IMG/VR virus record: IMGVR_UViG_3300038530_000371
Span: 1-27,977 of that record
DNA length: 27,977 bases
Origin: a virus
Lineage: Duplodnaviria; Caudoviricetes
Strand: one strand, 5' to 3'
The translations under genes and the position numbers were made by a program. Shown one piece after another: positions 6,121-18,144 of the stretch; position 1 is the stretch's first letter, and the number at the start of each line of letters is the position of its first letter. Below the pieces are notes generated by a model. That model was given only the letters and a program-made list of their open reading frames with translations. It had not been told where the DNA came from and did no database searches.

Positions 6121-9100
6121 ATGGCAACGTATGTAAATGATTTAAGATTAAAAGAAATAGCAACAGGTGATGAGTCAGGTACTTGGGGGGCTTCGACCAA
6201 CACCAATTTAGAGCTAATTGCTGAGGCGTTTAGTTTTGGCACAGAGGCTATAACAACCAACGCAGATACTCACACAACCACTATTGCAGACGGTTCTACT
6301 GATCCTGGTAGATCTATTTATTTAAAATATACAGGTACGCTTGATTCAGCTTGTACCATAACGATTGGCCCAAATACCGTATCTAAACTATGGTTTATTG
6401 AAAACGGTACATCAGGATCACAAAACATCATCATTTCGCAAGGATCTGGCGCAAATGTAACAATTCCAGCAGGTCATGTAAAAGCTGTATATTCAGATGG
6501 AGCTGGCTCTGGCGCAGCTATGGTTGATGCTTTTACCGATTTAAACTTAGCAGGAACTACAACTGTAGATGTTTTAAGTGGCAGCGGTAATGCAACTATT
6601 GGCGGTACATTAGGAGTTACAGGTATAGTTACGCTTACTGATGATCTAATTATTGGTGATGGTAAAACTATAGGATCTGCCTCAGATGTAGACGCTATGA
6701 CTATAGCCTCTAACGGACAAGTCACTTTTTCACAAACTCTTATTGGTACTGCACTAGACATATCTGGCGATATAGACGTAGATGGCACATCTAACTTAGA
6801 TGTAGTAGATATAGACGGAGCTGTAGATATGGCCTCTACCCTAGCTGTAGGTGGTGTTGTAACTGCAAACGCAGGTGTAGTCGTAGATAACATAACTATA
6901 GATGGAACTGAAATAGATCTATCAAGTGGTGATCTTACGATTGATGTTGCAGGAGATATTATTCTTGATGCAGGTGGTGGAGATTTTGATTTCTTAGTTG
7001 GTGGAACAGAAGTTGGTTCGATAATACGAGATGGCAGTAATTTACAATTAAAATCCTCTATTAGCGATGGTAGTATGATTTTTAGAGGCAACGATGGTGG
7101 CTCAATAATATCTGCTCTCACCCTTGATATGTCTAATGCAGGTGCAGCTACTTTTAACAGCACAATTAATGGTGTAGGTATTCTAGCCGACGCCACTAAC
7201 TTTGTAGACAGTATATTAATCAGCCAAGATGCAGGAACAGGAACTTTATCTTCTGCATCTCATAATGTAGGAATAGGTGATGATGTGTTTAACGTTTTAA
7301 CCTCTGGTATAAATAATACTGCAATAGGTGCTGATGCTTTTTCAAGTCTTACAACTGGACAACAAAACACAGCATTAGGAAAATCTGCTGGAGATGCCTT
7401 AACCACAGGAAGTTTTAATGTATTTATAGGTGATGCAGCTGGAGATGCTGTAACTACAGCAGATAGTAATGTAGCTATTGGACAAAACGCTTTAACTAAT
7501 ACCACTACTGGTGCTACAAACACAGCTTTAGGTAGACAAGCTTTACAAGCTAATACTACAGCTTCAGATAATACAGCTGTTGGTAATCAAGCTCTTTTAA
7601 ACAATACTACAGGAGGATTTAACACAGCAGTAGGAGCTAGGTCTTTGGATGCAAATACCACAGGTGCTGGAAATGTAGCAGTAGGAGAAGATTCCCTTAG
7701 TGGAAATACAGAAGGTGACGACAATGTTGCCATAGGACAAAATGCATTAAAATCAAGCACTACAGGAATAAGACTTACAGCCATAGGACAAAATGCTTTA
7801 ACAGCAAACACCACAGGAGATTCAAACGTAGCGATTGGTAGAAGTGCATTAGGCTCTAATACTACAGCAGATGATAATGTTGCTATAGGTCGAGAAGCAC
7901 TTTTTGCTAATACAACAGGTGCAGATAATGTAGCAATTGGTAATTTTGCTTTAGATGCGAATACCACAGCAAGTAGTAATACTGCTGTTGGTAGGTCAGC
8001 ATTAGGTGCTAACACTACAGGAAACTTTAACGTAGCTTTAGGTGCATTAGCATTAGATGCTAACACAGTAGGCGACAGAAACGTGGCTGTTGGTTATAAT
8101 GCACTTACAACGTATAACCCCTCAAGTAACGAGGATTCTTACCATGTAGCAGTTGGTCATGCTGCTATGGAATCAGTTACAACTGGTAATAAAAACACTG
8201 CTGTAGGTGGATTAGCTTTGCAATCTACTACAACTGGTATAGATAATGTAGGTATAGGTTATGCTGCTTTAAATGCAAATACTACAGCTTCAAATAATAC
8301 AGCAGTGGGAAATAAAGCATTATTATCAAACACAACAGGTACTGCTAATACGGCTGTTGGTAGTTTAGCTTTAGACGCTAATACAACTGGAGATAGAAAT
8401 ACATCAATAGGATATTTGAGTTTAGGTGCTAATACTACAGCAGATAATAATACTGCACTTGGTTATGGAGCACTAAATGTTAATACTACTGGTGACGACA
8501 ATACAGGACTTGGTTCTGGTGCTCTAGTAGCAAATACTACAGGTAATGACAATACAGCTGTGGGTAGAAGTGCTTTAGCTGCTAATACTGTAGGAGAACT
8601 TAATGTAGCAGTAGGAATGAACGCTTTATCTACAAACGTAGATGGTAGTAGAAGTACAGCAGTTGGATATGCTGCACTAGCAGCACAAGAGCCTTCATCT
8701 GCTTCAAATGTAAATAACGTGGCAGTTGGTTTTCATGCACTAAATGCAACTACTACAGGTGTTGAAAATACATCATTAGGTTCTGAATCTTTAGAAGCTA
8801 ATACTACAGGTTCTTTTAACACAGCTGCAGGATATAGGGCATTAGAAGCAAATACTTCAGGAGATGAAAATACAGGTGTAGGTAGAGAGTCCTTATTGAG
8901 TAATACTACAGGTGATAACAACGTAGCTGTCGGTCAAAGTGCATTACAACAAAATACAACAGCATCTAACAACACAGCTGTTGGTTATGATTCACTCAAA
9001 GCAAACACTACGGGCGACCTAAACACAGCAGTTGGTGCTTTGTCTTTAGATGCTTGTACCACAGGAGCAAACAATACTTCTGTAGGACATGATGCTTTAG

Positions 9101-10833
9101 GAGCAACCACTACAGGTAATAGCAATACTGCTGTTGGTGAAGATTGCTTACAAGCTAATACAACCGCAAGTAACAATACTGCCGTTGGTAGAAGAGCTAT
9201 GTTTTCTAATACGACAGGTACTGATAATGTTGCTATGGGACATAATGCTCTTGATGCAAATACTACAGCTAACAATAACACAGCTATAGGACATGACGCT
9301 TTAACAGAAAACACTACAGGTGCTCAAAATACAGCTATTGGTAGTTTAGCTTTAGATGCAAACACAACAGCTGGAAACAATACAGCAGTTGGATATAGTA
9401 CTTTAAGTGCTAACAATACAGGTACTTCTAATGTTGCAATGGGTTCATTTGCTTTATTATCAAATACTACAGGTGACGAAAATACTGCTTTAGGTCAAAA
9501 TTCATTAGATGCGAATACTACAGCTAACGCTAACACAGCTGTAGGCTTTAACGCTTTAACAGAAAACACTACAGGTGCTAACAATACAGGAGTCGGTAGA
9601 ACTGCTTTATCATCATCTACCACAGGTAGTTCTAATACGGCTTTAGGTAAGGATGCTTTAGCCACAAATACTACGGCAGATAATAATACAGCAGTCGGAA
9701 GATCTGCTTTAGTATCAAACAGTACCGGAGCTAACAATACAGCAGTAGGAATGAACGCTTTAGACGCTAATACTTCAGCAGATAACAATACAGCAGTTGG
9801 TAAATCTGCCCTAACAGAAAACACTACAGGCACAAGAAACACATCAGTTGGTGCTTTATGTATGGACGCTAATACAACAGCTAACGACAACACAGCTGTT
9901 GGATATGATGCTATGGGTCAGAATACTACTGGTGAAAAGAATACAGCACTTGGTACTTATGCTTTTGATGCTAATACGACAGGAAGTTCTAATGTTGCTG
10001 TAGGTAGAGCTGCATTAAGTGCTAACACTACAGCAGACCACAATACTGCTATAGGTTTTCAAGCTATGGATGTAAACACTACAGGTGCACAAAATACAGC
10101 AGTTGGTTCAGGTGCTTTAGATGCTTGTACTACAGCAGATGCTAATACAGCTGTAGGGTATTTGGCAGCAACAGCACTTACTACAGGTGCACAAAATACA
10201 GCTATAGGTATGGCTGCAGCAGAAGTTTTAACCGAAGGTAGCGACAATATAGTTATAGGGCATGATGCTGCTGATAATTTAACTACTGGTGGACAAAATA
10301 TTGCTATCGGAGTTGATACATCTTTATCAGCTGCAAGTGGCGATAATCAAATAGTTATGGGTCAGAATGTTACCTGTACAGGAAATGATAATTTTACATT
10401 TGGTAATGGTACTACTGATTCTAATATTGCTTTTGGTGCAACTTCTATTACAGCACCATCAGATGTAAGACTAAAAGAAGATATACAAGACGAAGAAGTA
10501 GGTTTAGATTTTGTAAATGATTTAAGACCTGTAACTTTCCTTTGGAAAAAAGAAAAAGATATACCTTCTGATATGAAAGCTTTTAAAGAGGATTCAGAAG
10601 CAAGAACTATGAATGGTAAATATAATCATGGTTTTATAGCACAAGAAGTTAAAGAAGTGATTGATAATCATAATTTAAAAGAAGGCTTTGATATGTGGTC
10701 AGAAGATGAAGCAGATGGAAGGCAAAGAATTGCACCATCAGCTATGATGTCTATAATGGTCAAAGCAGTACAAGAACTGTCTACCCAGGTAGATGAATTA
10801 AAAGCCGAAATACAAACCTTAAAGGAGGATTAA
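6121..10833 (+). CDS. Long tail fibre/receptor-binding protein with C-terminal intramolecular chaperone (peptidase S74)
   Basis: N-terminal anchor (ATGDESGTWGASTNTNLELI), long N-T-T-G-x-x-N-T-A-V-G-x-x-A-L repeat array, then SDVRLKEDI...LRPVTFLWK...GFIAQEV...VKAVQELS and a coiled coil. Confidence 0.9.
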   Translation: MATYVNDLRLKEIATGDESGTWGASTNTNLELIAEAFSFGTEAITTNADTHTTTIADGSTDPGRSIYLKYTGTLDSACTITIGPNTVSKLWFIENGTSGSQNIIISQGSGANVTIPAGHVKAVYSDGAGSGAAMVDAFTDLNLAGTTTVDVLSGSGNATIGGTLGVTGIVTLTDDLIIGDGKTIGSASDVDAMTIASNGQVTFSQTLIGTALDISGDIDVDGTSNLDVVDIDGAVDMASTLAVGGVVTANAGVVVDNITIDGTEIDLSSGDLTIDVAGDIILDAGGGDFDFLVGGTEVGSIIRDGSNLQLKSSISDGSMIFRGNDGGSIISALTLDMSNAGAATFNSTINGVGILADATNFVDSILISQDAGTGTLSSASHNVGIGDDVFNVLTSGINNTAIGADAFSSLTTGQQNTALGKSAGDALTTGSFNVFIGDAAGDAVTTADSNVAIGQNALTNTTTGATNTALGRQALQANTTASDNTAVGNQALLNNTTGGFNTAVGARSLDANTTGAGNVAVGEDSLSGNTEGDDNVAIGQNALKSSTTGIRLTAIGQNALTANTTGDSNVAIGRSALGSNTTADDNVAIGREALFANTTGADNVAIGNFALDANTTASSNTAVGRSALGANTTGNFNVALGALALDANTVGDRNVAVGYNALTTYNPSSNEDSYHVAVGHAAMESVTTGNKNTAVGGLALQSTTTGIDNVGIGYAALNANTTASNNTAVGNKALLSNTTGTANTAVGSLALDANTTGDRNTSIGYLSLGANTTADNNTALGYGALNVNTTGDDNTGLGSGALVANTTGNDNTAVGRSALAANTVGELNVAVGMNALSTNVDGSRSTAVGYAALAAQEPSSASNVNNVAVGFHALNATTTGVENTSLGSESLEANTTGSFNTAAGYRALEANTSGDENTGVGRESLLSNTTGDNNVAVGQSALQQNTTASNNTAVGYDSLKANTTGDLNTAVGALSLDACTTGANNTSVGHDALGATTTGNSNTAVGEDCLQANTTASNNTAVGRRAMFSNTTGTDNVAMGHNALDANTTANNNTAIGHDALTENTTGAQNTAIGSLALDANTTAGNNTAVGYSTLSANNTGTSNVAMGSFALLSNTTGDENTALGQNSLDANTTANANTAVGFNALTENTTGANNTGVGRTALSSSTTGSSNTALGKDALATNTTADNNTAVGRSALVSNSTGANNTAVGMNALDANTSADNNTAVGKSALTENTTGTRNTSVGALCMDANTTANDNTAVGYDAMGQNTTGEKNTALGTYAFDANTTGSSNVAVGRAALSANTTADHNTAIGFQAMDVNTTGAQNTAVGSGALDACTTADANTAVGYLAATALTTGAQNTAIGMAAAEVLTEGSDNIVIGHDAADNLTTGGQNIAIGVDTSLSAASGDNQIVMGQNVTCTGNDNFTFGNGTTDSNIAFGATSITAPSDVRLKEDIQDEEVGLDFVNDLRPVTFLWKKEKDIPSDMKAFKEDSEARTMNGKYNHGFIAQEVKEVIDNHNLKEGFDMWSEDEADGRQRIAPSAMMSIMVKAVQELSTQVDELKAEIQTLKED
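7261..10320 (+). repeat. About 60 degenerate 51-nt (17-aa) coding tandem repeats in the tail fibre
   Basis: Units such as ANTTASDNTAVGNQALL and NNTTGGFNTAVGARSLD; count estimated as length divided by 51. Confidence 0.9.
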
Positions 10834-11411: not shown

Positions 11412-11544
11412 TTTTGTTACAAATTCAGAAGATGTAGTTGTAAGAACTCGTGATGACAAAGGTAGATACGTTGGTGACGATAAATCTACTCCTGATGTAA
11501 ATGAGGCTTACACAACTAAAAGAGTAAAGAAAAGTAAAAAATAA
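11386..11544 (+). CDS. Small hypothetical protein (52 aa)
   Basis: AGGAG at 11374-11378 supports ATG 11386 over 11362; RDDKGRYVGDDKSTPDVNEAY motif; TAATG coupling to the next gene. Confidence 0.65.
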   Translation: MKWMRKLVNFVTNSEDVVVRTRDDKGRYVGDDKSTPDVNEAYTTKRVKKSKK

Positions 11545-11924
11545 TGGCTGATGCACCAGATGCATTTGTCTATAATGCAACTCTTGAAAGAATAGTAGAT
11601 GGTGATACTTTTGATTGTAGCTTAGATCTTGGTTTTGATGTAAAGCTACACAAACAAAGAGTTCGCCTTGCTCAAATTGACACACCAGAATCACGCACAA
11701 GAGATCTTGCAGAAAAGAAACTTGGTTTAGCTGCAAAAGCTAGGCTTGCAGAGTTATGTGCCGGTAAAATCAAAGTAAAATCTTTAGGTAAAGGTAAGTA
11801 TGGCCGTATTTTAGGTATACCGTATACAGAAGATGGTAAAGACATTTGTCAAATACTTATAGATGAGGGTCACGCAGTTTTTTATGATGGCGGTAAGAAA
11901 ACTAAGATTTGGGGTGATTACTAA
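11544..11924 (+). CDS. Thermonuclease (SNase-like) family protein
   Basis: RIVDGDTF, RVRLAQIDTPES and GKYGRILG motifs; no signal peptide. Confidence 0.9.
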   Translation: MADAPDAFVYNATLERIVDGDTFDCSLDLGFDVKLHKQRVRLAQIDTPESRTRDLAEKKLGLAAKARLAELCAGKIKVKSLGKGKYGRILGIPYTEDGKDICQILIDEGHAVFYDGGKKTKIWGDY

Positions 11925-11927
11925 ACT

Positions 11928-12278
11928 GTGGAATCTGCTGTAACCGTCATCCAAGAAGTTGGTTTTCCTATAGCAGCAGCTTTAGGCCTTGGTTGGTTTA
12001 TTTACAAACTTATTATGCGTATTGTTGATGGTATGGAAACAAAACTTGATACCGTTGATGAAAAAGTAGAAGGTCAAATTGCTGCTATTGAAGAAAGATT
12101 AGGCACAAAACTTGATAGCCAGCACGGTATTTTAGTAGCATTAATAGATAGAATTAGAAGCCTTGATAATGAGATTATTAGACAAGACACACTAATAAAA
12201 ACTATACTAGGAGTGCCACAATTAATTGATAGCAATAAGATTGCTAAGGCTGATAGAGATGACCAAAGGAAAGATTAA
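11928..12278 (+). CDS. Membrane-anchored coiled-coil protein (YvrJ/holin-like N-terminus)
   Basis: GTG start; one TM segment VGFPIAAALGLGWFIY followed by heptads; overlaps csgF. Confidence 0.6.
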   Translation: MESAVTVIQEVGFPIAAALGLGWFIYKLIMRIVDGMETKLDTVDEKVEGQIAAIEERLGTKLDSQHGILVALIDRIRSLDNEIIRQDTLIKTILGVPQLIDSNKIAKADRDDQRKD

Positions 12279-12747
12279 GCTACCATTACACTACAAAATA
12301 ATTTTTATTTGGGCTGTAGTTTTATTTGTTGGTATTCTTTGCGTAAACATCCAAGCAGATACCATAACCTTTAAATTTAAAAATCCAAGTTTTAGTGGGG
12401 TAAATACTAGCTCACATTATCTTACTATAGAAAATCAAGAACACATGCGTAAGATGACTATTAAAGAAGAAATTAAAGCCTTACAAGACGAATTAGAAAG
12501 AGATGCAGAAAACACTACATTAGCAAGATTTTTAAGGAATTTAGAAAGTAGAATATACGCACAAATATCAAGACAGATAGTTGAAAACATGTTTGGGGAA
12601 ACACAATCGACTGAAGGATCGTTTGAGCTTGAGGGCAACATAATATCTTACAAGATTGAAGATGGCATGATAATACTAACAATTTTTAACTCAAATGATG
12701 GAACAACGACTGTTATTGAATTGCCTTTTGGCGATTTCAGTTTCTAG
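12259..12747 (+). CDS. csgF: Curli assembly component CsgF-like
   Basis: Signal peptide ending IQA, then DTITFKFKNPSFSG, matching the CsgF mature N-terminus (E. coli GTMTFQFRNPNFGG); FLRNLESRIYAQISRQI helix; adjacent to csgG. Start is 12259 or 12226. Confidence 0.85.
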   Translation: MTKGKIKLPLHYKIIFIWAVVLFVGILCVNIQADTITFKFKNPSFSGVNTSSHYLTIENQEHMRKMTIKEEIKALQDELERDAENTTLARFLRNLESRIYAQISRQIVENMFGETQSTEGSFELEGNIISYKIEDGMIILTIFNSNDGTTTVIELPFGDFSF

Positions 12748-13516
12748 CTGTAGTCTTTTAGACGTAGTACAAGAAACTAATCCTAAGACATTTAATCTTG
12801 AAGGCAGAGAATCTTTTAGCATTTATCAACTACAATCTTCAGAATTAGCAAACGTAAAACCACCGGTAGTCAAGCCTGTTGTTGCTGTTTATCCAAATTC
12901 TTTCTTAGACCAAACCGGACAAAGAAAAAGTAACAGTGAATTTGCTTTGTTTTCATCTGCTATAACTCAAGCACCCAATACAATATTAATACGATCTTTA
13001 AAACACGCAGCTGGCGGTAATTTTTTTCGTGTAGTAGAAAGAGTTGGTTTAGATAATCTAACAAAAGAAAGACAACTAATAAGATCTACAAGAGAAAAAT
13101 TAGGTGAAGAACAAAGCCTAGGCCCACTCCTATTTGCTGGTGTCTTGCTAGAAGGTGCTGTTGTATCGTATGATAGTAATATAGCTACGGGAGGTATTGG
13201 AGCAAGATACCTTGGTATAGGCTCTAGTATGCAATACCGAGAGGACAGCGTAACCGTTAGTCTCAGAATGGTGTCTGTAGCAACAGGCGAAATACTTATA
13301 GAGGTAATGTCGCAAAAAACTATCTATAGTTATGGCCAATCGCAAGATGTTTTCAAATTTATAGAAATGGGAACAGAATTGGTAGAAATAGAAACGGGAG
13401 CCACCCGCAACGAAAGCACAACCCTAGCTTTAATGAAAGCTATCGAAGGTGCAGTTTTAGAAATAATAAATATAGGAAATACACGAGGGTATTGGAAATA
13501 TGAAGAAACTAATTAA
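12695..13516 (+). CDS. csgG: Curli secretion pore lipoprotein CsgG
   Basis: Lipoprotein signal ending VSS-C19; FLDQTGQRK, FRVVERVGLDNLTKERQLIR, EGAVVSYDSN, GGIGARYLGIG and VTVSLRMVSVATGEIL motifs. Confidence 0.92.
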   Translation: MMEQRLLLNCLLAISVSSCSLLDVVQETNPKTFNLEGRESFSIYQLQSSELANVKPPVVKPVVAVYPNSFLDQTGQRKSNSEFALFSSAITQAPNTILIRSLKHAAGGNFFRVVERVGLDNLTKERQLIRSTREKLGEEQSLGPLLFAGVLLEGAVVSYDSNIATGGIGARYLGIGSSMQYREDSVTVSLRMVSVATGEILIEVMSQKTIYSYGQSQDVFKFIEMGTELVEIETGATRNESTTLALMKAIEGAVLEIINIGNTRGYWKYEETN

Positions 13517-14225
13517 TATTGTTTTATTTATGTCTCTATCTATAGTTGCAGATAATGAAATTTATGTAGACCAAACTGGTAACTCAGCTGCTATAGATTT
13601 AGAGCAGCAAGGCGGTTCTAACCTTATTGGTGGTACATCAGCAGAAACAGGTAGCATGACGGCTCTAGATCTAGATGGTGTGTCAATGATACTTGACATC
13701 AATCAGATTGGTGCATCAAACGTATTTAGATCAGATGCTATAGATGGTGATAACTTTACTGGATTCTTTGAGTTTTCAGGCGATAGTAACGTTTTTGATA
13801 TCTTAATGGATAGCACAGGTCTTATAGACTCTGATTACATTAATATGAATATAAATGTTACAGGATCAAGCAACACGTTTGATTTAGCGGTTGCAGAAGA
13901 TGATGACGCATCATATTTAGATTTAGATTGGATTATTACTGGGGGCAGTAATGAGTTTGATTTTGATATAGATTATGCAAATGCGATAAACTATGTAGAT
14001 GTTAATGGAAGCAGTAACACAATTAATTTCAGCGGTAGTGGATATGGTGGCACAACATCAGCTGATAGTGGATATTTTTACTTGGATTTAGATGGTAGTT
14101 CAAACACACTCGATATTACGCAATCTTCAACGCTTGCAAGGGATTATCTCAAAATTATTAGTAATACTTCTAATTCAAATATCTGTGTGGTCCAAAACGA
14201 CCAAGGTACAAGCACAAGCTGTTGA
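13500..14225 (+). CDS. Secreted acidic curlin-like beta-repeat protein
   Basis: Sec signal; NEIYVDQTG, IDLEQQGGSN and LDINQIGASN curlin-type strands; seven G-x-S-N turns; GAGGG upstream; follows csgG. Confidence 0.7.
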   Translation: MKKLINIVLFMSLSIVADNEIYVDQTGNSAAIDLEQQGGSNLIGGTSAETGSMTALDLDGVSMILDINQIGASNVFRSDAIDGDNFTGFFEFSGDSNVFDILMDSTGLIDSDYINMNINVTGSSNTFDLAVAEDDDASYLDLDWIITGGSNEFDFDIDYANAINYVDVNGSSNTINFSGSGYGGTTSADSGYFYLDLDGSSNTLDITQSSTLARDYLKIISNTSNSNICVVQNDQGTSTSC

Positions 14226-15255
14226 TATAGGGGACATATCTGAGTTATCTGGTTCTGCTAGTGTTGTAAGGGATCAGCTTTATAACGCTACAGTAAATTT
14301 TGGTATACAAACAAATGATGAGGCTATTACCAATAATGGCCGTATGGCTATTAAGTTTTTAGATGATAGTCAAGTAAAGCTTACAGAACACTCCCAGCTT
14401 TTAATAAACGAATACATTTTTGATCCTGATCCAGATAAATCAAAAATGGCCCTTACCTTTGCGTTAGGAACTACTAGATTCATTACCGGTAATCTAAACC
14501 GTATTAACAAACAAAACATATCTTTACAAACTCCAACTGCAAATATAGCTATACGTGGTACTGACTTTACAGCAACCGTTAATGAGTTAGGTGAGTCATT
14601 AATTATATTACTGCCAGATGAATACGGTATATCAAGCGGGGAGATAGAAGTTATTACTGCAACCGGAAGTGTCATACTTAACAAACCGTTTGAAGCTACA
14701 ACAGTAAATGTTTTTGAAAGCGCTCCATCAAAACCAGTAATCCTAGATTTAACCTTAGATTTAATTGATAACATGCTTATAGTTTCACCACCAGAGGAAG
14801 TGGTTGTAGAAGCAGAAGAGGTGATAGTAAAGTCGGATAGTATTTTAGATTTTAATGATTTAGATATTGATTATTTGGATGAGGATTTTTTAGATAACGA
14901 AGCTGAACTAGAGTTTACAGAGTTAGATATAAACTATCTAGATGTAAATTTTTTGGAGGATTTATTAGATGTTTTGGATGCTCTTGAGGTAGCAGAGGAG
15001 GAAGATCAACTATCACAAGATATAGGATCAATTAGTCTTACAGGTACGCAGTTTGGACAAGACCCAGACACACAAATAATATCTTTTATAGATGGTGAAA
15101 AGCTTACCCTTATAAGAGCTGTAAACAACAGCGCAAGAGTAGATTTAGACACTAACGGTAGTTATACTGTAATCTTTATACAAGATGGTGTTTCTAAAAC
15201 TATCAAAGTAAACGGAGGCAGTAGTAGTATTATTACTATTAGACAAAGCCAGTGA
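14092..15255 (+). CDS. Exported FecR-domain protein with acidic linker
   Basis: Hydrophobic leader ending AQA; GRMAIKFLDDSQVKLTEHSQLLI, GTTRFITG and LQTPTANIAIRGTDF FecR motifs. Start uncertain (ATG 14092 or TTG 14134). Confidence 0.85.
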   Translation: MVVQTHSILRNLQRLQGIISKLLVILLIQISVWSKTTKVQAQAVDIGDISELSGSASVVRDQLYNATVNFGIQTNDEAITNNGRMAIKFLDDSQVKLTEHSQLLINEYIFDPDPDKSKMALTFALGTTRFITGNLNRINKQNISLQTPTANIAIRGTDFTATVNELGESLIILLPDEYGISSGEIEVITATGSVILNKPFEATTVNVFESAPSKPVILDLTLDLIDNMLIVSPPEEVVVEAEEVIVKSDSILDFNDLDIDYLDEDFLDNEAELEFTELDINYLDVNFLEDLLDVLDALEVAEEEDQLSQDIGSISLTGTQFGQDPDTQIISFIDGEKLTLIRAVNNSARVDLDTNGSYTVIFIQDGVSKTIKVNGGSSSIITIRQSQ

Positions 15256-16994
15256 AATATAAAATATTTATATGTTTGTTTGCCTTACTATCACTACCAC
15301 TTATATTTCAAAGCCAGCCTACAGAAATATTAAAACTTAAATTTTTTGACGCTTTTGTAGAACAAAAAGAACCATCTAACTTTTTTACCATATTAAACTT
15401 AGATGAAGAGTTTATAGCAGATGAGGGTGGTTGGCCCTTACCCAGACAAAGATTAGCTGAAATACATGTAGATATTTTAAATGCTGAAGCTCTAGGTGTT
15501 GGGTGGGTTATATCTTTTCCACAACCAGACCGTATGGGCGGCGATGCAGTTTTTGCAGAGGTTTTAAATTACGGTGGTTCTGTCCTTGCTATGTTTGAGA
15601 ATCCAAACGGGTCATACCCTGAGACTTCAGGTACAGTTTTACTAGGTCCTGATGTAGGTGGTATGATGAGTCAGGGAGTAGTGCAGAATATTGATGTACT
15701 TAAACTGTCTGCGGATCAAGGTATTGCTACTGCTCCCGTAGACGTTGATCAATTAGTCCGCAGAATACCACTTTTACTTAGAACTCCAGATGGCTTTGTA
15801 TCCGCCTTTGGTACCGAAGTGATGAAAATGCTTGTTGGTAATAATACTTACATTATAAAAACTAATGATAATGGTATAGAAGAAATAACTGTACAAGGTT
15901 TAGCTCCTGTAAAAACAGACAGTCTAGGTCGTAAATGGATAAGCTGGGTTGATACGCCAGAAACAACATTAGAAGAACTAGATGTTGCTAATAAATTTGT
16001 TTTTATCGGTGTAACAGCTAGCGGTATCATGCCGCAAATCGCAACTCCGGTTGGATTATTAGAACCGCATAAGATTCAAGCGGCATTATCTGAGTCAATT
16101 TTGATTCCTGACAGTCCATATATACCAGATTTTGCTTTTGCGTTGGAAATTTTAATTTTTGCAATTTTTGTCACTCTGACGTGGCTCTCAATTAATTATC
16201 TTGGTGTGGTTAAGGGCATAAGTCTCGCTGGTGTTTTACTGCTCACCAACGGCTTCTCAAGCGTTTTTTTAATCAAAAAGGGCATTTTGATAGATTTTAC
16301 CTGGACTTTTGTATCGCAAGTGCTCACAAGCGCAACAGCTTTCTATATAAACTATCGTAAGCAATACAAATTACGTCAACAAATTAAGAAACAATTTGAA
16401 CACTATTTAGATCCTAGACAAATTGCAATTCTGCAAAAAACTCCCGAAGCACTCAAACTTGGTGGTGAAAAAAGATACTGCACTTTTTTATTTACTGATG
16501 TCCGTGGATTTACCGCTTTATCTGAAACTTTAGAGCCAGAAGAGGTTACAAACATTATGAACAGAGCACTAACAATACAATCTAATGCCGTAAAGAAATA
16601 TGGCGGTATGGTAGATAAGTATATTGGTGACGCCATGATGGCCATATTTAACGCACCAATAGATTTAGATCATCATGAAGATATGGCTATAGAAGCAGCA
16701 CTTCAAATTATGCAAGATATGAAAGAAGCAAATATAGGTGTAAATATTGGTATCGGCATCAACAGTGGCGAAGCTTGTGTTGGTAATATGGGTAGTGATA
16801 CTAGATTTGATTATAGTGCTATTGGGGATGCAGTAAATACGGCTGCAAGACTTGAAAGTGCAACTAAAAATGTGGGCGTAGATTTAATAATAGGGCATAA
16901 CACTAAAAAATCTTGCAATTTTAAGTTAGAATTACTAAAACCAATTAAAGTTAAAGGTAAAAAAGAATCTTTAGCAATATATACTATTAAATAA
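15252..16994 (+). CDS. CHASE2-domain membrane class III adenylate cyclase
   Basis: N-terminal TM; CHASE2-like region (GGWPLPRQRLAE, FPQPDRMGGD, DVDQLVRRIPL); three TMs; catalytic FTDVRGFT, DKYIGDAMMA and FDYSAIGDAVNTAARLES. GTG start overlaps the upstream TGA. Confidence 0.92.
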   Translation: MKYKIFICLFALLSLPLIFQSQPTEILKLKFFDAFVEQKEPSNFFTILNLDEEFIADEGGWPLPRQRLAEIHVDILNAEALGVGWVISFPQPDRMGGDAVFAEVLNYGGSVLAMFENPNGSYPETSGTVLLGPDVGGMMSQGVVQNIDVLKLSADQGIATAPVDVDQLVRRIPLLLRTPDGFVSAFGTEVMKMLVGNNTYIIKTNDNGIEEITVQGLAPVKTDSLGRKWISWVDTPETTLEELDVANKFVFIGVTASGIMPQIATPVGLLEPHKIQAALSESILIPDSPYIPDFAFALEILIFAIFVTLTWLSINYLGVVKGISLAGVLLLTNGFSSVFLIKKGILIDFTWTFVSQVLTSATAFYINYRKQYKLRQQIKKQFEHYLDPRQIAILQKTPEALKLGGEKRYCTFLFTDVRGFTALSETLEPEEVTNIMNRALTIQSNAVKKYGGMVDKYIGDAMMAIFNAPIDLDHHEDMAIEAALQIMQDMKEANIGVNIGIGINSGEACVGNMGSDTRFDYSAIGDAVNTAARLESATKNVGVDLIIGHNTKKSCNFKLELLKPIKVKGKKESLAIYTIK

Positions 16995-16995
16995 T

Positions 16996-17211
16996 ATGGT
17001 TAACAAAAGACTTACAGTTCAAGACGTGGCTAAAGATTTAGCTGTATCAAAAAAAGAAAACGCAGAGCGTTGGAAAACTGCTTTCAACGAGTTTGCAGAT
17101 ATTAAGCAAGAAATAGCATCTATAAATACAACTATTAGAATGGCAACATTTGGTGTTTTTAGTTTTGTTGGTGCTTTAGCTATAGCAGTATTTACTACGG
17201 TGATATTATGA
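16996..17211 (+). CDS. Small protein with coiled coil and C-terminal TM (lysis-module membrane protein)
   Basis: Heptad region then FGVFSFVGALAIAVFTTVIL; ATGA overlap with the next gene. Confidence 0.6.
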   Translation: MVNKRLTVQDVAKDLAVSKKENAERWKTAFNEFADIKQEIASINTTIRMATFGVFSFVGALAIAVFTTVIL

Positions 17212-17687
17212 AAAAATTAATCAAAGGTATTCTAGGTCAAGTAGCACCTACTATTGGAACTGCTTTAGGTGGTCCTATGGGCGGTATGGCAGGTAATATG
17301 ATTGCAGATGTGCTTGGTTGTGCAAACAATCCAAAAGATATACAAACAGCAATACAAAACGCTACACCTGAACAAATGATGCAAATAAAACAAGCTGAGC
17401 AAGATTTTAAAGTAAAGATGAAAGAGCTTGAGGTTGATGTATTTAAGCTTGAGACAGAAGATAAACAAAATGCAAGAGGTATGTTCAGTAAAGATTGGAC
17501 AGCAAGAATTATAGGTATTGCTACTATTGGAGGTTTTTTAGGATACATATTCTTGGTAACGCTACAACCACCAGAGCAAAACTCTGAGGCTTTAATAAAT
17601 CTTGTATTGGGATATTTAGGAGGATTAGCAAGTGCTATTATTTCGTTCTATTTTGGAGCGTCTCACTCAGGCGACAAAGGAGAGTAA
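17208..17687 (+). CDS. Putative holin
   Basis: VAPTIGTALGGPMGG N-terminus, two C-terminal TMs ending IISFYFGAS; directly upstream of the endolysin. Confidence 0.65.
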   Translation: MKKLIKGILGQVAPTIGTALGGPMGGMAGNMIADVLGCANNPKDIQTAIQNATPEQMMQIKQAEQDFKVKMKELEVDVFKLETEDKQNARGMFSKDWTARIIGIATIGGFLGYIFLVTLQPPEQNSEALINLVLGYLGGLASAIISFYFGASHSGDKGE

Positions 17688-17688
17688 C

Positions 17689-18144
17689 ATGCAAATTTCA
17701 GAGGAAGGAAAATCACTTATCAAAAAGTTTGAAGGTTGTGAATTAGAAGCGTACAAATGTGCCGCAGGAAAATGGACAATAGGTTTTGGCCGAATAAAAA
17801 ATGTAAAAGAAGGTGATACTTGTTCACAAGAACAAGCAGACAAGTGGCTGGAGGAAGAGCTGCCTGTATATGGAGCATACGTAAGTGACGCAGTGTTAGT
17901 GCCGCTAGAGCAAAATGAATTTGATGCTTTAGTTGCTTGGACATACAACTTAGGTCCATCAAATCTTAACAACTCCACTATGTTAAAAGTTCTTAATGAC
18001 AATAAAAAAGATGAAGTACCACATCAAATGCGTAAATGGAATAAAGCAAGAGTTAATGGAGAAAAAGTTGTTTTACCGGGACTAGAACGCAGAAGATTAG
18101 CAGAATCTTTACTGTTTGAAGGTAAAGAATGGCATGAGGTTTAG
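17689..18144 (+). CDS. Endolysin, GH24 phage lysozyme
   Basis: AGGAG RBS before ATG 17689; E-x8-C-x5-T triad (FEGCELEAYKCAAGKWTIGFG); FDALVAWTYNLG and LPGLERRRLAE. Confidence 0.93.
   Translation: MQISEEGKSLIKKFEGCELEAYKCAAGKWTIGFGRIKNVKEGDTCSQEQADKWLEEELPVYGAYVSDAVLVPLEQNEFDALVAWTYNLGPSNLNNSTMLKVLNDNKKDEVPHQMRKWNKARVNGEKVVLPGLERRRLAESLLFEGKEWHEV

Follow-up and report, generated by a model that had tools for sequence, protein, structure and literature searches.

The DNA analysed here is a 27,977-nt stretch of a tailed phage genome (Caudoviricetes; IMG/VR record IMGVR_UViG_3300038530_000371), which we refer to as the window. It represents part of the late region of a marine podovirus-like phage. 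All of its large genes lie on the plus strand, and they encode adaptor-like proteins, a tail spike, a curli-related gene cassette, a lysozyme, and virion proteins. The cassette, which is the subject of this analysis, is made up of six genes:

11928..12278, + strand: small membrane protein of 116 amino acids (aa), with an N-terminal transmembrane (TM) segment at residues 11-29 and a coiled coil; sixth member of the cassette, found in 34/34 cyclase-anchored loci
12259..12747, + strand: CsgF, surface adaptor binding in the CsgG pore (PF10614, E 3e-19)
12695..13516, + strand: CsgG, outer-membrane pore lipoprotein (PF03783, E 1.5e-47)
13500..14225, + strand: single curlin-like beta-solenoid protein (Curlin_rpt below cut-off; structure model)
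14092..15255, + strand: exported FecR-domain protein (PF04773, E 6e-9; start at ATG 14092 or TTG 14134)
15252..16994, + strand: receptor-type, CHASE2-bearing class III (IIIb-like) predicted adenylate cyclase (PF05226 (CHASE2), E 2e-24; PF00211 (Guanylate_cyc), E 2.5e-21)

An earlier note on this DNA had singled out the five consecutive, overlapping genes at 12259..16994. All five are intact and lie on the plus strand where that note placed them, and its membership was one gene short: the small membrane gene at 11928-12278, which overlaps csgF by 20 nt, had been left out. The remaining overlaps measure 53 nt (csgF/csgG), 17 nt (csgG/curlin), and 4 nt (fecR/cyclase), while that between curlin and fecR is 134 nt from ATG 14092 or 92 nt from TTG 14134. 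Both CsgG and the FecR protein have their signal peptide encoded within the preceding gene, csgF and curlin, respectively. The CsgF, CsgG, FecR, CHASE2, and Guanylate_cyc domains all passed the Pfam cut-offs, which bears out the proposed identities, with a weaker call for the curlin (Curlin_rpt E 0.2, sub-threshold). The reported absence of csgC, csgD, and csgE was also borne out, as none had a Pfam match in the 30 plus-strand open reading frames (ORFs) scanned (an open-ended last ORF from 25717 lay outside the scan). Likewise, a six-frame search with two curlin profiles found one curlin in the window, as had been claimed, and one in a complete relative.

CsgF starts with a hydrophobic signal segment followed by a conserved mature N-terminus, and its N-terminal segment aligns to the E. 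coli CsgF of 6l7a, a match that is weak alone (E 0.22). Residues 49-270 of CsgG match E. coli CsgG (4uv2, E 4.5e-41). Its signal peptide and lipobox cysteine lie in the overlap with csgF, and a lipobox-like cysteine occurs in 22/22 representative N-termini. The cassette has, like bacterial curli (type VIII) secretion, CsgG and CsgF homologues together with a solenoid subunit.

The curlin-like protein matched the NCBIfam CsgB model (E 0.004), and sub-threshold Curlin_rpt matches were obtained for 19/22 relatives. Its structure model (pLDDT 79.7) is a beta-solenoid that matches the canonical two-sheet fold of CsgA/CsgB. The model aligns to Pontibacter CsgA with Z 16.9 (rmsd 8.9, 191 aligned residues, 23% identity), a match with which SufB/SufD solenoids tie (Z 16.9-17.2). 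A Foldseek search returned no curlin at E up to 0.001, and a PDB sequence search with the curlin profile returned nothing significant. Meanwhile, the QX10Q kernel with Asn/Gln ladders of canonical curlins, which form amyloid fibres once exported through CsgG, is not retained, as the glutamine ladder is degenerate: the 241 residues contain a single QX10Q motif, whereas nine curlins encoded in csgFG loci of alphaproteobacteria have 6-39, and the glutamine content is 2.9%, against 7.7-9.5% in those same proteins. The protein is also strongly acidic (36 D/E versus 3 K/R; median net charge of -28 in 67 relatives), and it carries a C-terminal cysteine pair (C229-C241) that is present in 135/135 podophage curlins. 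In myophages, this terminal pair occurs in the second curlin (46/46) and never in the first (0/94). Because of the few QX10Q motifs, the low glutamine content, the acidity, and the terminal cysteine pair, we infer that the curlin makes a short, capped stalk and not a long amyloid. Bacterial curli loci, as far as described in PMC10192328, mostly hold two glutamine-ladder curlins, whereas the cassette has one degenerate curlin.

The FecR-domain protein is composed of a signal peptide, a FecR-like N-domain, an acidic linker (30 D/E versus 1 K/R in 80 residues), and a C-terminal beta domain. In FecR/PupR anti-sigma cell-surface signalling, a membrane-anchored FecR with a cytoplasmic anti-sigma part goes together with an extracytoplasmic function (ECF) sigma factor and a TonB receptor; here, only a signal-like hydrophobic segment precedes the FecR domain, and the window had no sigma factor or TonB receptor match. 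The protein ends in a hydrophobic-x-hydrophobic-x-Q motif in 233/233 complete phage FecR proteins (236 examined). The same ending was found in 1/72 bacterial FecR ORFs and in 16/1287 other ORFs, 13 of which resemble second curlins; several bacterial and second phage curlins also end in this way. The C-domain profile matched none of 71 bacterial loci, and the domain was found in the cassette only. Comparison of the FecR and curlin profiles gave only an 11-column terminal match (probability 1.5%), and the tail went unrecognised by a 38-segment repeat profile; the idea that the FecR protein ends in full curlin repeats was therefore dropped, and we claim only a curlin-type terminal strand. A complex prediction of the curlin with the C-terminal 85 residues of the FecR protein scored 0.10 (mark 0.32). 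The FecR structure was poorly predicted (pLDDT 42), with nothing above Z 4.5 in the fold search; a PDB sequence search with the FecR profile found nothing significant, and the Atlas gave no usable match for the C-terminal part.

The cyclase has an N-terminal TM segment, a periplasmic CHASE2 domain, a TM bundle, and a cytoplasmic catalytic domain; among solved structures, bacterial class III cyclases come closest to it. The catalytic positions D416, K456, D460, S522, N529, and R533 are all present. We take the class III residue roles to be those of two metal-binding Asp, a substrate-binding Lys with Asp/Thr/Ser, and a transition-state Asn and Arg. All six positions are kept in 157/164 unique viral relatives, and D416, K456, D460, and R533 in 164/164. 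With this intact ATP-type site, the enzyme is predicted to make cyclic AMP (cAMP).

The composition of the cassette is conserved among phages. A CsgG scan of IMG/VR yielded 144 relatives, of which 80 were kept, and a cyclase-anchored scan yielded at least 583, of which 80 were kept as well. Every csgG-anchored locus with at least 3.6 kb downstream carried curlin, FecR, and cyclase genes (66/66) and none a second curlin (0/66), while all new cyclase-anchored loci with at least 3.8 kb upstream carried every other cassette member (34/34). Gene order was constant in these 66/66 and 34/34 informative viral loci, and only one curlin was found in 100/100 anchored podophage loci, indicating that FecR and cyclase are retained in loci without the second curlin seen in myophages. 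Myophage loci, which were retrieved with the FecR proteins of the phages HTVC008M and Melnitz, have the same block with a second curlin-like gene in 46/54 cases. These second curlins bear swappable N-terminal passenger domains, like interchangeable binding heads (L157 6079-7401, L163 6079-7569, L170 5566-6990), and in a locus identical to HTVC008M the passenger is a PA14 domain. Short unrelated genes are at times inserted between fecR and the cyclase gene, with a gap of at least 200 nt in 18/149 podophage loci. In some podophages the insert encodes an exported-looking protein of 120-160 aa (L008 5417-5863, L033 6158-6604, L283 5477-5953), and elsewhere the same site holds unrelated inserts, including a methyltransferase-like ORF.

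The situation in bacteria is different. Searching GTDB with the FecR profile gave 74 loci. Three of them are full cassettes whose contigs also carry phage-type genes, and the other 71 hold bacterial N-domain relatives. A CHASE2 enzyme occurs in the same locus in 22 of these 71 (21 being cyclases), while csgF, csgG, or curlin genes stand beside none of them (0/71). Conversely, CsgF was found above the cut-off in 7/401 alphaproteobacterial genomes (one weaker match left out), and in none of these seven csgFG loci does a FecR or CHASE2 gene lie closer than about 8 kb. The linkage proposed in the earlier note therefore stands without exception in phages and fails in the sampled bacteria. As the bacterial halves were found only apart, the cassette looks like a phage-made join of a csgF-csgG-curlin export unit with a FecR/CHASE2 signalling pair. 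Several of the bacterial N-domain relatives form the N-terminus of cadherin or RTX-repeat proteins, a layout reminiscent of adhesins that are retained in a secretion pore (bioRxiv 10.1101/198937); one of them lies beside a TolC-type gene. A possible host-side relative is encoded in a single-cell genome of the Pelagibacteraceae (L084 7768-10746): it is 993 aa long and has a FecR-type N-domain, and its gene follows a 464-aa gene without a Pfam family. A protein homologue search gave close relatives only (74-100% identity) among the 120 matches listed.

The cassette is intact, conserved, already published, and also present in cultured phages. Wittmers et al. (2022; PMC9599517) described CsgF, CsgG, curlin, a "histidine kinase" ("HK"), FecR, and adenylate cyclase, with their order conserved, in myophages as well as in nine podovirus genomes. 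In that region, one or two small "HK" genes come first, and FecR is frequently accompanied by the cyclase. They reported expression of this region in metatranscriptomes and the presence of the curli module, which is common among ocean phages, at all 65 GOV2.0 stations, and proposed roles in aggregation, superinfection shielding, and import. Before that, Zaragoza-Solas et al. (2020; PMC7029224) had reported csgFG in SAR11 myophages and proposed sibling capture. Buchholz et al. (2022; PMC9004378) proposed a lysis-timing role, pinholin or secretin-like, and saw no clumping in Melnitz infections. The mention of csgF/csgG in SAR11 myophages in the earlier note was therefore sound, and phage curli genes were indeed known; its view of prior art fell short in that the complete block, FecR and cyclase included, had been described, in podoviruses too. 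In the literature searched, mostly outside subscription journals, no experimental test of the phage cassette was found.

The window agrees with this pelagiphage type VIII secretion system (T8SS) region in its genes and their order, in its podovirus-like marine phage background, in the lack of CsgC/D/E, and in having a small gene at the "HK" position before csgF, with FecR and cyclase after the curlin. It differs in that it has no second curlin and that the gene at the "HK" position has no kinase domain, although single-curlin forms may already stand in the figures or supplements of that paper. Its main text, as available, does not mention CHASE2, endolysin, lysozyme, or holin; the lysis neighbourhood may be shown in the figures or supplements. 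The cultured myophages HTVC008M (gp011-gp019, NC_020484) and Melnitz (gp97-gp104, MZ577097) have the same order, with two small genes first. Their CsgG proteins share 51.5% and 45.4% identity, respectively, with that of the window. In both, a second curlin is present and bears a passenger domain, whereas the window phage has one curlin.

The small protein encoded at 11928-12278 corresponds to the "histidine kinase" of Wittmers et al. by position only. No HisKA or HATPase match was found in 19 members of its family at E up to 1, and the printed label is probably a misannotation. The protein is homologous to the small ones encoded before csgF in myophage loci, among them the locus identical to HTVC008M, and most myophage loci hold two paralogues. 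Matches to YvrJ were sub-threshold (12/19 members), and the Atlas clusters of the protein consist of unnamed viral proteins. A resemblance to the holin BhlA (0.87) is a lead only.

Two structural proteins of the window share 31-37% identity with those of HTVC023P/HTVC027P and about 40% with phage DSL-LC04. A PolA DNA polymerase is a feature of HTVC023P-type podoviruses, and the podoviruses of PMC9599517 were collected by means of PolA, while the five contigs related to the window had no PolA (PF00476) match (0/5; 0/3 among those at least 90% complete; the window itself is without the replication region). Near-complete relatives of 53-55 kb, namely G003 (L335-L337), G004, and G005, combine the cassette with HTVC023P-like structural genes and no PolA match, and the complete 54.7-kb relative G003 encodes Prim-Pol, Sak4-like, exonuclease VIII, Cro-like, GroES, and SET-domain genes. 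The carrier of the cassette is a podovirus lineage whose complete relatives are without PolA. Beside a phage integrase, a full cassette was also seen on a contig assigned to a metagenome-assembled genome (L083 6120-7448), so that some carriers may be temperate. GC content and third-position GC (GC3) of the cassette are within or close to the range of the flanking genes, and counts of promoters (23 versus 29.0) and terminators (3 versus 3.6) are at chance level. Elsewhere in the window, positions 921-1181 encode an 86-aa basic protein with short Y-M-A-x-G-G-type repeats and no Pfam or PHROG match, and positions 6121-10833 a tail spike of 1570 aa, which has an S74 chaperone and long 14-residue repeats. 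The length of the spike differs among relatives, with 623 aa at the same position in G003.

The genes that flank the cassette in the window are the following:

11544..11924, + strand: SNase-like nuclease (PF00565, E 1e-12)
16996..18144, + strand: lysis genes, namely 71-aa and 159-aa membrane proteins with TM helices, and a phage lysozyme (PF00959, E 5e-41)

The nuclease occurs near the cassette or the endolysin, on either side, in 56/91 podophage loci, and a lysozyme lies no more than 2.5 kb downstream of the cyclase in 57/91. The two-helix 159-aa protein (17208-17687) belongs to phrog_1544, and the 71-aa protein is its neighbour (16996-17211). The phrog_1544 protein and an Rz/Rz1-like spanin pair are mutually exclusive between cyclase and endolysin: across 76 loci with a nearby lysozyme, 40 have only the spanin pair, 35 only the 159-aa protein, none both, and 1 neither; after removal of near-duplicates (37 loci), the counts are 21, 15, 0, and 1. 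No spanin match was found in the window, and the 159-aa protein may take the place of spanins or of a holin-spanin set.

On the basis of intact genes, predicted export signals, an ATP-type cyclase site, and fixed co-occurrence, all of them read from sequence, we tentatively propose that the cassette products act together in the infected cell as a single sensor that spans the envelope and has cAMP as its output. This is the likeliest of the explanations considered, at somewhat less than an even chance. CsgG and CsgF would assemble in the outer membrane, and the single acidic, Cys-ended curlin would be exported and stay on CsgF as a short stalk, without forming long amyloid. The C-terminal part of the FecR protein would engage the pore or the stalk, while its periplasmic N-domain would act on CHASE2. 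A change outside the cell would then alter cAMP output, which might adjust a late stage of infection, the simplest case being the timing of lysis, via a further receptor. The proposal draws on the linkage in phages, the degenerate curlin, the terminal strand of FecR, the pairing of FecR with CHASE2 in bacteria (clusters are described in Campylobacterota and Burkholderia), the conservation of the catalytic site, and a precedent. In Sinorhizobium meliloti, as described in PMC13001267, PMC7529298, and PMC5498481, the CHASE2 cyclases CyaK, CyaD1, and CyaD2 are activated across the envelope via the outer-membrane protein NsrA and signal to Clr, and acidic exposed surfaces have been proposed to bind a basic protein signal. 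The NsrA-CyaK connection had been named in the earlier note and is confirmed by PMC13001267 and PMC7529298. NsrA is a beta-barrel receptor, in place of which the cassette has CsgG/CsgF, and the S. meliloti pathway includes a CRP-family receptor, whereas none was found in the five phage contigs related to the window.

Several observations weigh against this proposal. No cyclic nucleotide monophosphate (cNMP)-binding domain was found in the five related phage contigs, and such a domain occurs in 5/151 Pelagibacteraceae genomes and a CRP-type helix-turn-helix above the cut-off in 3/151, with the proviso that these genomes are incomplete and that the family may not be the host. The FecR-domain gene smc02177 beside cyaD1 is dispensable for signal perception in S. 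meliloti (PMC5498481). The separation of FecR/cyclase from csgFG in the sampled bacteria leaves the proposal with no cellular model. As a curlin repeat, the FecR tail had a median z of -0.13, and 1/68 tails beat all 100 shuffles. The viral loci are redundant and were chosen by similarity to the query. As for lysis timing, lysis genes adjoin the cassette in only the 57 of 91 podophage loci and do not adjoin the block in the annotated regions of HTVC008M and Melnitz; the position of the cassette near lysis genes may only reflect late expression. The earlier suggestion of a sensor rather than a biofilm factor thus gains indirect support from the single degenerate curlin, the bacterial FecR-CHASE2 pairing, and the intact catalytic site, and is weakened by the failure to find a cAMP receptor.

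Second in our ranking is the published view that curli-like fibres are exported and aggregate cells, serving sibling capture or superinfection shielding (PMC9599517, PMC7029224), with FecR and cyclase regulating in place of CsgD. CsgF, CsgG, and a solenoid curlin are intact, and the second curlin-like gene of most myophage loci, often with a passenger domain such as PA14, fits this function; the restriction to one curlin in the window and in all anchored podophage loci, the degenerate glutamine ladder, and the lack of clumping in Melnitz infections (PMC9004378) make it doubtful here. We place third, as rather unlikely, a direct role in lysis, in which the pore and its partner proteins would themselves break down the envelope or time lysis and cAMP would be secondary. 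It was proposed for Melnitz (PMC9004378) and would agree with a cassette abutting membrane proteins and an endolysin. However, the lipoprotein signal of CsgG is not a holin layout, the catalytic residues of the cyclase are strictly retained, and where dedicated spanins stand beside the cassette, as in 40 of the 76 lysozyme loci, CsgG would be unneeded as a spanin substitute.

An uptake channel, in which CsgG ungated by CsgE admits cofactors or iron carriers to the periplasm and FecR/CHASE2 report their arrival, was suggested in PMC9599517 and is compatible with the missing CsgE match. We consider it improbable, as it leaves CsgF, the curlin, and the curlin-type end of FecR unexplained, and as a cytoplasmic anti-sigma part is missing from the FecR protein, and a TonB receptor or ECF sigma factor match from the window. 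Ranked last, and very improbable, are two functionally independent modules hitchhiking in one late operon. The separate occurrence of the bacterial halves speaks for them, but no anchored phage locus with enough flank held one half alone, signal peptides are encoded inside the neighbouring gene, and the FecR C-domain is confined to the cassette.

The envelope-spanning sensor can be put in a more specific form, which we regard as unlikely as a whole. The curlin-type C-terminus of FecR would be threaded through CsgG, with the acidic linker spanning the envelope and the N-domain held in the periplasm against CHASE2, much as type I secretion pores retain adhesins. On the outside, the acidic stalk would sense material from lysed neighbours or an incoming phage, and cAMP would set lysis timing via a non-CRP receptor. 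If this were true, the phage would encode an outside-in second-messenger pathway that controls lysis.

As a discovery, the cassette is not new; the window holds a compact version of it, with one curlin and six genes. What is added here is the anatomy of the curlin and FecR proteins, which favours a sensor over amyloid fibres. Should the sensor hold true, a lytic phage would equip a host group mostly without a known cAMP receptor with a cAMP pathway of the phage's own, running from the surface to the cytoplasm.

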